A stretch of 26,781 nt of DNA from a virus (lineage: Duplodnaviria > Heunggongvirae > Uroviricota > Caudoviricetes). Made by a program: the position numbers. Below are positions 21,001 to 24,000 of this stretch, piece after piece (positions within the stretch are counted from its first letter, which is position 1; each line of letters begins with the position of its first letter). Location: the IMG/VR virus record IMGVR_UViG_2681813261_000026, one strand, 5' to 3'.

Positions 21001-24000
21001 GCGACCTGTACGTCGACGAGATTTTCTGGATCCCGAATTTTCAGGTACTGCGTAAGGTGGCATCAGGTATGGCCTCACAGAGTCACCTGCGCTCGACCTA
21101 TTTCTCCACCCCGTCCACGCTGGCGCACGACGCCTACCCGTTCTGGTCGGGTGAACTGTTCAACCGGGGACGCGCCAGCGCCGCCGAACGTGTGGAAATC
21201 GACGTCAGTCATAACGCCCTTGCCGGTGGTCTTCTCTGTGCGGACGGCCAGTGGCGGCAGATTGTCACCATTGAGGACGCCCTGAAAGGCGGCTGCACAT
21301 TGTTCGACATTGAGCAGCTCAAACGCGAAAACAGCGCCGACGATTTTAAAAACCTGTTCATGTGTGAATTTGTTGACGACAAGGTATCGGTGTTCCCGTT
21401 CGAGGAGCTGCAACGCTGCATGGTCGACACGCTGGAAGAATGGGAAGACTACGCGCCGTTTGCCGCAAATCCGTTCGGCTCCCGCCCGGTATGGATTGGT
21501 TACGACCCGTCACACCGTGGCGACAGCGCCGGATGCGTGGTGCTGGCACCGCCGGTGGTGGCCGGTGGCAAATTCAGAATACTTGAGCGTCACCAGTGGA
21601 AAGGCATGGACTTTGCCACCCAGGCGGAGTCCATCCGCAAACTCACCGAAAAATACAACGTCGAATACATCGGTATTGATGCCACCGGCCTCGGTGTCGG
21701 CGTGTTCCAGCTCGTGCGCTCGTTCTATCCCGCCGCGCGCGATATCCGCTACACGCCGGAAATGAAAACCGCAATGGTGCTCAAGGCCAAAGACGTCATC
21801 CGCCGTGGCTGTCTGGAATATGACGTCAGCGCCACCGACATCACCAGCTCGTTCATGGCTATCCGCAAGACCATGACCAGCAGCGGACGCAGTGCCACCT
21901 ATGAGGCCAGCCGCAGCGAGGAAGCCAGCCACGCCGACCTCGCCTGGGCAACCATGCACGCCCTGTTAAATGAGCCACTCACCGCCGGTATCAGCACTCC
22001 GCTGACATCCACCATTCTGGAGTTTTACTGATGAGCAAGAAAAAAGGGAAAACACCGCGACCTGCGGCAAAAACAATCACCGCCAGCGCCCCGAAAATGG
22101 AAGCATTCACCTTTGGTGAGCCGGTGCCGGTACTCGACCGCCGTGACATTCTGGATTACGTCGAGTGCATCAGTAACGGCAGATGGTATGAGCCGCCGGT
22201 CAGCTTTACCGGTCTGGCAAAAAGCCTGCGTGCTGCCGTGCATCACAGCTCACCGATTTACGTCAAACGTAATATTCTGGCTTCAACGTTTATCCCGCAC
22301 CCGTGGCTTTCCCAGCAGGATTTCAGCCGTTTTGTGCTGGATTTTCTGGTGTTCGGTAATGCGTTTCTGGAAAAGCGTTACAGCACCACCGGTAAGGTCA
22401 TCAGACTGGAAACCTCACCGGCCAAATATACCCGTCGTGGCGTGGAGGAGGATGTTTACTGGTGGGTGCCGTCCTTCAACGAGCCGACAGCCTTCGCGCC
22501 CGGCTCCGTGTTTCACCTGCTGGAGCCTGATATTAATCAGGAGCTGTACGGCCTGCCGGAATATCTCAGCGCCCTTAACTCTGCATGGCTGAATGAGTCG
22601 GCCACGCTGTTCCGCCGCAAGTATTACGAAAACGGCGCACATGCCGGATACATCATGTACGTCACCGATGCCGTGCAGGATCGCAACGATATCGAAATGC
22701 TTCGCGAAAACATGGTTAAGTCGAAAGGCTGCGTATTCCGCTCTATTCGATCACGGATTGGCATCGAAGTTCGATCAGCGATTCGCATCCATTCGATCAA
22801 CCGGGAACTTAACTTTTTCTACCGCTTTTTAACTCGTTTTTTCGCTGCTTTCCACTGTCGGGGGATTTTTCCTCAGGGACTCTCCCTGAAGGACCACTCT
22901 GTGTGAGTTATGTACCAGTCTGTCCAGGATGGCATCTGCTGTTGTTGGGTTCTCCATCAGACCATGCCATTTATCTACCGGGAACTGGCTTACCACTATC
23001 GTGCTGCTTTGTCCGTAACGATCCTCTGTGATCTCCAGAAGGTCATTACACTGGGCGTTACTTAACTGTTCCAGCCCCAGATCGTCCAGGATTAGAACCT
23101 GTATTTTTTGCAACTGTTTCAGATATTTCAGCCAACTGCCATCAACACGTCCCTGAGCCAACTGTTCCAGTAATCGCCCGGTTCTACAGTACCGGACGCT
23201 GTATTTCTGTCGACATGCCTGTTCGCCCAGCGCATTGGCTATCCAGCTCTTACCGCATCCTGTCGGACCGGTTATCAGTAGGTTTTTCCTGTGGATTATG
23301 TAGTGGCCGTTCAGCAGTTCCCTCATCTGTTCAGCCCGCAGACCTCTTGAGGCCGGATAACGCAGCCCTTCCGGTGTTGCCTGATATTTCAGGCAGGCAT
23401 TTTTTCTCAACCGTGCCACACGACTGTTTTCTCTGCTCAGAAGCTCGTCATCAACCAGCAGTGTCAGCCTTTCCTCGAACGACAGTTCGTCGTAAGTCTG
23501 AGGCGTTTCCCGTTGCCGTATCAGGCTCCCGGCCATCGCCGGGAGTTTCAGTTGGGTCAGTTTGTTTAACAGATTATCACTCATACGGTTGTTCCTTCTG
23601 TCAGTGGTAGTAGCCAGGACCACGCAGGTTTTCATGCTCTGAAGCATATGCCGGATGTTGTTCGCCCTGGCGGGATAACGGAAGCTCAACGTTATCCCGA
23701 TGATGACGCAGCAGATTGTCGATAAAGCGTCTGTCCGGGGCGTTATAGTGCAGGGCAACGTAACAGGCCTTTTCCAGCCGTTCCGGGCCGTATTTTTTCT
23801 GAAGTGCCAGCAGACCCAGGACTGCACGGTAAGCCAGCTCCGGATGGGGTTTGGCTTTCAGCATGGATTCAACCACCCGGCCTGTGGACGGACCTGTACG
23901 GTTTCCCTGCTCGATAAGGCGTTCCGGTGTCCATGTCCCATGCCGCCGGTGGCGTTCTGGCATGTGAAGCGGATTGGTTGTGTGTTTATATTCATGTGTG

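Follow-up and report, generated by a model that had tools for sequence, protein, structure and literature searches.

Elements of the IS21 family have a two-gene organization and multiple terminal repeats, and a hybrid insertion sequence (IS) with nonmatching flanks is the textbook signature of an IS-mediated rearrangement. In the prototype of the family, IS21 of the Pseudomonas plasmid R68.45, the two genes encode the DDE transposase IstA and the AAA+ helper IstB, and the same plan is found in ISSso4 of Shigella sonnei. IS21 is a different element from ISSso4, however, and no feature described here calls for its tandem (IS21)2 cointegrate pathway. ISSso4 is listed among the insertion sequences of S. 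sonnei 53G, and the supplement of Hawkey et al. records 29 ISSso4 sites in S. sonnei, several of which are near-fixed; in the matrix from that study, four rare sites lie within 16 kb of one another, at 4.06 to 4.08 Mb in IS-free 53G coordinates (PMC7373316). Simple insertions of ISSso4 in S. sonnei consist of the same 2638-bp istA-istB element at 100% identity, with TG...CA ends and target-site duplications (TSDs) of 5 to 7 bp, and the element is multicopy and active. Hybrid insertion sequences with nonmatching flanks have been described for IS-mediated deletions and inversions of Shigella genomes (PMC7373316). The same appearance was found in a draft contig in which an IS21-family element separates a P2-like prophage from a type VI secretion system (T6SS) gene.

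The DNA analyzed here (the window, 26,781 bp) is the final 26.8 kb of the 48,167-bp draft contig CXEK01000014.1 (GCA_001248175.1), which ends within vgrG, 1416 bp beyond the IS; the window was 99.97 to 100% identical to S. sonnei genomes, including that of 53G. The P2-like prophage spans the window from ogr/D on the left to P and Q on the right, and it shares the gene order D...O / P-Q both with phage P2, from which gpQ is known, and with the P2-like prophages at cpxP-fieF. The order D, U, T, E, FII, FI, a 472-amino-acid (aa) cargo open reading frame (ORF), G, H, I, J, W, V, S, R, lysis genes, X, L, M, N, and O was found on the minus strand (the cargo ORF itself lies on the opposite, plus strand), followed on the plus strand by P and then Q. 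The protein encoded by P was found unchanged in more than 1000 collection blocks, S. sonnei genomes among them. In the S. sonnei relatives, the same prophage occupies the site between cpxP and fieF; its Q gene is intact, and beyond it come cos, cargo genes of the GmrSD-like, HEPN, and methylase types, A, B, cox, C, and int.

Several other features of this prophage were observed. The major capsid gene N (18100-19172, minus strand) carries a 1-bp deletion in a run of G residues at about position 18645, which splits it into ORFs of 182 and 175 aa when judged against the intact 357-aa versions in relatives L018, L030, and L002. The frameshift is also present in the close relatives L015, L017, and L031, and the prophage was therefore already defective before an IS reached Q. 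The 472-aa ORF (7014-8432, plus strand) lies between the tail-fiber assembly gene G and the sheath gene FI, at the position of the P2 Z/fun cargo, and is kept in all S. sonnei copies of the prophage (L005, L007, L009, and others). Pfam and PADLOC searches returned no match for it, and it could be an uncharacterized cargo or defense gene. The tail-fiber gene H (9078-11393, minus strand) has a 3-bp deletion at about position 9477 relative to 53G, giving a product of 771 rather than 772 aa, a variant found on only 12 contigs; it also contains an imperfect internal repeat (window 10392-10875) with an offset of 132 bp and about 88% identity. The complete genome CP065624.1 contains two P2-like prophages with an identical 771-aa H, at 2.43 Mb and 0.37 Mb (L033 and L034). 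In the cos-proximal hotspot of relative L015 (13179-16055), which corresponds to the old/tin position and to a region missing from the window, genes for a GmrSD_N protein of 380 aa, a HEPN protein of 226 aa (PF18737/PF18735), and a cytosine methyltransferase form a group that looks like defense cargo.

The right-hand end of the prophage in the window comprised the following features.

20259-22031, plus strand: P, encoding the terminase ATPase subunit gpP, intact, 590 aa (Pfam Terminase_5/6N/6C)
22031-22729, plus strand: 5' fragment of the portal gene Q, codons 1 to 233 of 344 (alignment to intact Q)
22031-22906, plus strand: read-through ORF of 291 aa (CSR57448.1), consisting of Q codons 1 to 233 and 58 IS-encoded residues (on a single contig in the whole collection)

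The assignment of Q to the P2-like portal genes follows from its gpQ/portal homology and from its position downstream of and co-oriented with P and divergent from O-N-M-L; the Pfam Phage_portal match was weak because the gene is truncated. Compared to annotated 344-aa portal genes, the nucleotide identity was 98.6%, and compared to S. sonnei relatives L015 to L017, Q was 100% identical as far as position 22729. Unlike the P2-like prophages at cpxP-fieF, the prophage in the window has a Q gene that is interrupted at codon 233 and a capsid gene N with the 1-bp frameshift. A preliminary description, made from the window sequence, had held that Q is cut by an IS21-family element after about 236 recognizable codons. 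The truncation was borne out, but alignment to intact 344-codon portal genes placed the breakpoint at position 22729, at the end of codon 233. The read-through protein, named phage capsid protein [Shigella sonnei] at NCBI, is a singleton. Since the copies of this prophage in S. sonnei relatives retain an intact Q, with identical prophages in L015, L016, and L018, the junction between Q and the IS is a strain-specific novelty.

The interrupting element was identified as ISSso4, in accordance with the family that had been proposed for it.

22730-25367, minus strand: ISSso4 (IS21 family), 2638 bp, with the IRR end on the left (Q side) and the IRL end on the right (vgrG side), 100% identical to annotated copies
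22829-23584, minus strand: istB, helper AAA+ ATPase, 251 aa (Pfam IstB_IS21, 1.2e-59; gene call in L003)
23601-25136, minus strand: istA, DDE transposase, 511 aa (Pfam rve and Mu-transpos_C_2)

In RefSeq, identical copies are labeled "IS21-like element ISSso4" with istA and istB annotated, and a match of 2.6 kb at 100% identity would not arise by chance. The gene content and the ends both agreed with the IS21 family, whose members measure about 2 to 2.7 kb, have inverted terminal repeats, and duplicate 4 to 8 bp of target: istA and istB are adjacent on one strand, and the 2638-bp element has TG...CA termini (TGCGTATTCC...CATTTTGCA) with subterminal repeats at both ends that contain GATGCCAAA/TCGATCA motifs. 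An identical IstA protein was present in 1832 collection blocks. A search for further copies showed that ISSso4 is multicopy in S. sonnei relatives, with at least three copies encoding identical IstA in CP032523.1. Single-nucleotide polymorphisms occur at IS positions 122, 1761, 2279, and 2509, and the window carries the majority base at each. At position 1761 this base is C, whereas the vgrG copy of CP032523.1 has T; since draft relatives have C too, the polymorphism has no power to assign the copy. Other ISSso4 copies were noted in the course of this survey. One lies in Q of the same prophage in CP179990.1 (L017, 11951-14588), after about codon 59 and in the opposite orientation, with the TSD CTTTA, and another adjoins a truncated tail-fiber assembly gene of the same prophage in JANXIY010000004.1 (L013, 1-2395); both are independent of the insertion in the window. 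The copy beside mtlA/yibH (L026 and L027) has an 81-bp internal deletion (IS positions 2278-2358) that cuts IstB to 224 aa and is probably nonautonomous.

Flanking sequences were extracted for every ISSso4 copy fetched, and all eight of the independent insertions had a perfect direct TSD of 5 to 7 bp, as follows.

L017: TSD CTTTA
L026/27: TSD CCAGC
L021: TSD ACCAGA
L022: TSD GACTAC
L023: TSD AATGGG
L019/24/28: TSD CGTGAGG
L020: TSD CTCAGTG
L001: TSD GCGATAC

The copy in the window, as assembled, had ...GAAAGGC on one side and TCTGGTT... on the other, with no direct repeat. The flanks quoted in the preliminary description (gtcgaaaggc and tctggttatt) were thus exactly right, as was its statement that no TSD is present. 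A simple insertion with both flanks contiguous was rejected for the contig as assembled, and Q and vgrG are adjacent in no relative. When each junction was paired with its true partner, direct repeats were recovered on both sides, AAGGC for Q and ACCAGA for vgrG (L021). The only difference between the window and simple ISSso4 insertions is the pairing of flanks in a draft contig, and the comparison brought out no biological difference.

Beyond the IRL end, the window leaves the prophage, as had been stated, and enters the T6SS locus.

25368-26781, minus strand: fragment of vgrG (T6SS spike), nucleotides (nt) 187 to 1600 of a 2142-nt gene, cut on its 3' side by the IS and on its 5' side by the contig end (Pfam Phage_GPD, Phage_base_V, and Gp5_trimer_C)
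25368-25373, minus strand: TCTGGT (reverse complement ACCAGA), one of the two 6-bp TSD copies made by the older vgrG::ISSso4 insertion (L021 flanks)

Alignment to intact vgrG showed that vgrG is itself broken by the IS, after nt 1600 of 2142, a point that was absent from the preliminary description. The same arrangement is found in the complete genome CP032523.1 (L021), where the order is tssB, hcp, vgrG' (538 aa), ISSso4, ACCAGA, the vgrG 3' remnant, and rhs. The junction there reads ...AACCAGA, the IS, and then ACCAGATCC..., and its IRL-side flank (TTACCAATAACCAGA) matches that of the window base for base. Across the 4052 bp of vgrG and IS the identity to L021 was 99.975%, and the vgrG fragment alone matched the vgrG::ISSso4 locus of CP032523.1 without a difference (100% identity). 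Because the IRL flank in the window is that of the simple insertion in CP032523.1, the IS end beside vgrG belongs to an older, ordinary insertion. In the clade concerned, the hcp-adjacent vgrG is disrupted by ISSso4 in CP032523.1 (L021, 2170-7030) and on at least 26 draft contigs, and 26 contigs carry the 463-aa VgrG' that is called in the window. Judged from these identities, the junction between vgrG and the IS is inherited, having arisen by a separate, simple insertion shared by the clade. The missing TSD is for the same reason better read as the flanks of two IS copies than as the signature of an IS-mediated deletion or rearrangement, as had been supposed. Decay of the T6SS in S. sonnei was described in a 2024 paper, in which tssM, tssH, tssK, and tssC are given as routinely nonfunctional; in the passages searched, tssM is the sole gene named with an insertion sequence, and "tssI" does not appear (PMC10924462).

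If Q had been hit by a simple insertion, with or without later recombination, a second contig would be expected with the IRL end, a repeat of 5 to 7 bp from ...GAAAGGC (AAGGC for 5 bp), and then CGCAATAAC... (Q codon 234 onward), and the partner junction at vgrG would read IRR, then ACCAGATCCAG (vgrG 3'), then rhs. Reciprocal junctions were built in silico from the IS of the window and the identical Q 3' sequence of L015, L016, and L017; ORFs were listed from them in the manner of a gene caller, and ten were looked up by exact sequence. Exactly one junction-specific candidate was found, an ORF of 117 aa (MPFCKGRNNFKNLF...) that begins with the last 13 nt of the IS (ATG CCA TTT TGC A), continues through AAGGC, and then enters CGC AAT AAC... 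(Q codons 234 to 344). Fusion ORFs with a 6- or 7-bp TSD, and those with other start codons, were absent in an exact look-up in the collection. The 117-aa fusion is CSR86034.1, "phage capsid protein [Shigella sonnei]," and it occurs on one 28,750-bp contig only. The copy of the repeat that remains in the window is the following.

22725-22729, plus strand: AAGGC, left copy of the 5-bp TSD of the Q insertion, with the right copy on another contig (the 5-bp-TSD version is the only version of the predicted fusion protein, MPFCKGRNNF..., in the collection)

Since CSR86034.1 exists and contains AAGGC, the TSD produced in Q would be a normal one of 5 bp, and the 3' end of the gene would not have been lost. 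The sizes of the contigs agreed with this conclusion. Relative L031, which differed from the window by 1 mismatch in 21,393 bp (99.995% identity), has an uninterrupted contig of 72,882 bp, which the breakpoint divides into a left part of 44,142 bp and a right part of 28,740 bp. On the left side the source contig has 44,113 bp, and CSR86034.1 lies on a contig of 28,750 bp, such that the two together correspond to the single contig of L031 cut at the IS. The agreement between 28,750 bp and the 28,740 bp beyond the breakpoint in L031 implies, in addition, the presence of cos, the early region, int, and the cpx flank on the 28,750-bp contig. This contig most likely belongs to GCA_001248175.1 as well, because CSR86034.1 shares an accession series and annotation wording with CSR57448.1 and CSR57513.1, is a singleton, has the same breakpoint, and lies on a contig of the size predicted from L031. 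Both fusion proteins (CSR57448.1 and CSR86034.1) are singletons among about 15 billion sequences. The preliminary description had proposed a deletion that took the 3' end of Q together with cos and the whole early region from this side of the prophage, and it had named, as evidence that would speak against a deletion, a Q 3' end with cos directly beyond the IS elsewhere in the assembly and with a TSD, or a junction that is an assembly artifact. CSR86034.1 with AAGGC, on a contig that presumably comes from the same assembly, is such a Q 3' end, and the proposed deletion was not upheld.

The behavior of ISSso4 in other draft assemblies also bears on the linkage of the two junctions. In 18 of the 24 collection blocks that contain it, the vgrG piece is a contig of about 1.5 kb that breaks off about 100 nt into the IS. 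In a further five drafts (L036, L037, L039, L040, and L041; FUED, FUDQ, FUDE, FTUA, and FTUS), the vgrG fragment and a partial ISSso4 are followed by single N's and then by a second vgrG/IS copy, joins that are clearly nonbiological scaffolding artifacts. Drafts thus normally break or are mis-scaffolded at this element. The source contig, unlike those five drafts with single-N joints, has no N and clean sequence through the entire IS. A Sanger pipeline that combines Velvet, SSPACE, and GapFiller underlies 299 public S. sonnei assemblies, with a mean of 405 contigs sorted by size, and its authors noted that these greedy tools are liable to false joins (PMC5320598). This pipeline presumably produced the source assembly. 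Chimeric contigs formed through collapsed repeats by greedy SSPACE/GapFiller joining share with the present case a multicopy repeat longer than the insert size and flanks that each have a proper partner elsewhere, but differ from it in that the join in the window is seamless and without N (PMC5320598). Here, too, the repeat exceeds the insert and is multicopy (presumably so in this isolate, as judged from its relatives), each flank derives from a separate bona fide insertion, and other assemblies break or are misjoined at the repeat. Because the 2.6-kb repeat is multicopy, a short-read contig is uninformative on linkage across it; each junction is locally reliable, the linkage of both through the IS is not, and the contig holds essentially no information on which IRL flank is linked to the IS on the Q side.

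Together, these results make it very probable that the window records a simple ISSso4 insertion that duplicated 5 bp in Q, and a chimeric contig that runs through a collapsed repeat. In the sequence of events that we propose, the strain would have inherited the older ISSso4 insertion in vgrG with its 6-bp duplication, ACCAGA. An ISSso4 copy would then have transposed normally into Q after codon 233 in one S. sonnei isolate, duplicating AAGGC, and its target would have been the prophage at cpxP-fieF that was already defective through the capsid gene frameshift. The assembly would have been unable to separate the identical 2.6-kb IS copies and may have taken a path from the Q 5' flank through the collapsed IS to the vgrG flank of the other copy. 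The expected result would be a chimeric contig with mismatched flanks, the 3' part of Q having been placed with cos and the early region on the separate 28,750-bp contig. Since the flanks of two different IS copies would be joined in one contig, no TSD would be visible. Of these elements, the sequences of the two junctions, the descent of the vgrG junction, and the existence of a reciprocal Q junction that bears the TSD have been demonstrated. The reciprocal junction would lie in the same assembly, the IS would be multicopy in the strain, and the join would most likely be an error of the assembler or scaffolder.

The principal alternative, which we consider unlikely, is that the contig is real and that flanks were exchanged, either by homologous recombination of an IS inserted in Q with the vgrG copy or by intramolecular transposition of the vgrG copy into Q. 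One product would be a hybrid IS between vgrG 5' and Q 5', the reciprocal one would link Q 3' to vgrG 3', and the outcome would be a large inversion or, if the repeats are direct, a tandem duplication. The four junction sequences are the same for a reciprocal IS-IS exchange as for two simple insertions, so that L021 and CSR86034.1 are compatible with a real contig; the source contig is free of gaps, and Shigella genomes are considered to undergo IS-mediated rearrangements commonly (PMC7373316). Against this, an exchange requires two rare events on the terminal branch, compared to one for an assembly artifact, and the short-read contig carries no linkage information across the multicopy repeat.

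The positions of the two loci weigh on the same question. The T6SS lies between aspV/yafT and yafV/fadE on E. coli backbones, and the prophage lies at cpxP-fieF. From the K-12 gene orientations, we take vgrG and its IS to read clockwise and the IS in Q to have the same orientation; the K-12 map likewise places the two loci about 0.8 Mb from each other, on an arc with rpoBC and rRNA operons but without oriC. On an E. coli backbone, the Q and vgrG copies would thus be direct repeats about 0.8 Mb apart, an orientation that depends on E. coli backbones and the K-12 map, while S. sonnei genomes are rearranged. A crossover between direct repeats gives a lethal deletion and an excised circle, and the observed pairing would therefore not be a viable product of simple recombination. 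The vgrG 5'-IS-Q 5' junction could then survive only as the joint of a 0.8-Mb tandem duplication. If one locus were inverted in S. sonnei, the product would be an inversion within one replichore of highly expressed operons, presumably those for rRNA and ribosomal proteins. These geometric arguments are supportive rather than decisive. The specific form in which a hybrid ISSso4 physically joins vgrG to the P2-like prophage through IS-IS recombination, by way of an intrareplichore inversion of about 0.8 Mb or a tandem duplication, either of which would cover rpoBC and several rRNA operons, is quite improbable in our estimation.

The adjacent deletion proposed in the preliminary description, in which the 3' part of Q would have been lost through the IS along with cos, old/tin, A, B, cox, C, int, and att and a single IS would be left between Q 5' and vgrG, is favored by the heterologous flanks without a TSD and by the finding of Q-IS-vgrG in none of the 5,426 complete E. 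coli genomes searched (in the sole IS-in-vgrG match among these, H1/L001, the IS is 96% identical and sits elsewhere in the gene), but it is highly improbable, since the junction of IS end, TSD, and Q 3' exists on a contig whose size fits Q 3', the early region, and host flank, essential genes or oriC lie between the two loci whether the backbone interval is taken as about 0.8 Mb or about 3.8 Mb, and the vgrG junction is older than the Q event. Unlike in the IS-mediated deletions and inversions of Shigella genomes, the distal half of the target and the TSD are still present here, and linkage through the IS is unsupported.

Nothing new in kind is indicated by the window. For IS-rich genomes such as those of Shigella, neither deletions nor rearrangements can be called from a draft contig that runs through a multicopy IS, and where no TSD is seen, two separate insertions may simply have been joined. 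The biological content of the window is one further strain-specific ISSso4 insertion in an already dead prophage, together with confirmation of an S. sonnei clade in which the T6SS vgrG is disrupted by ISSso4.
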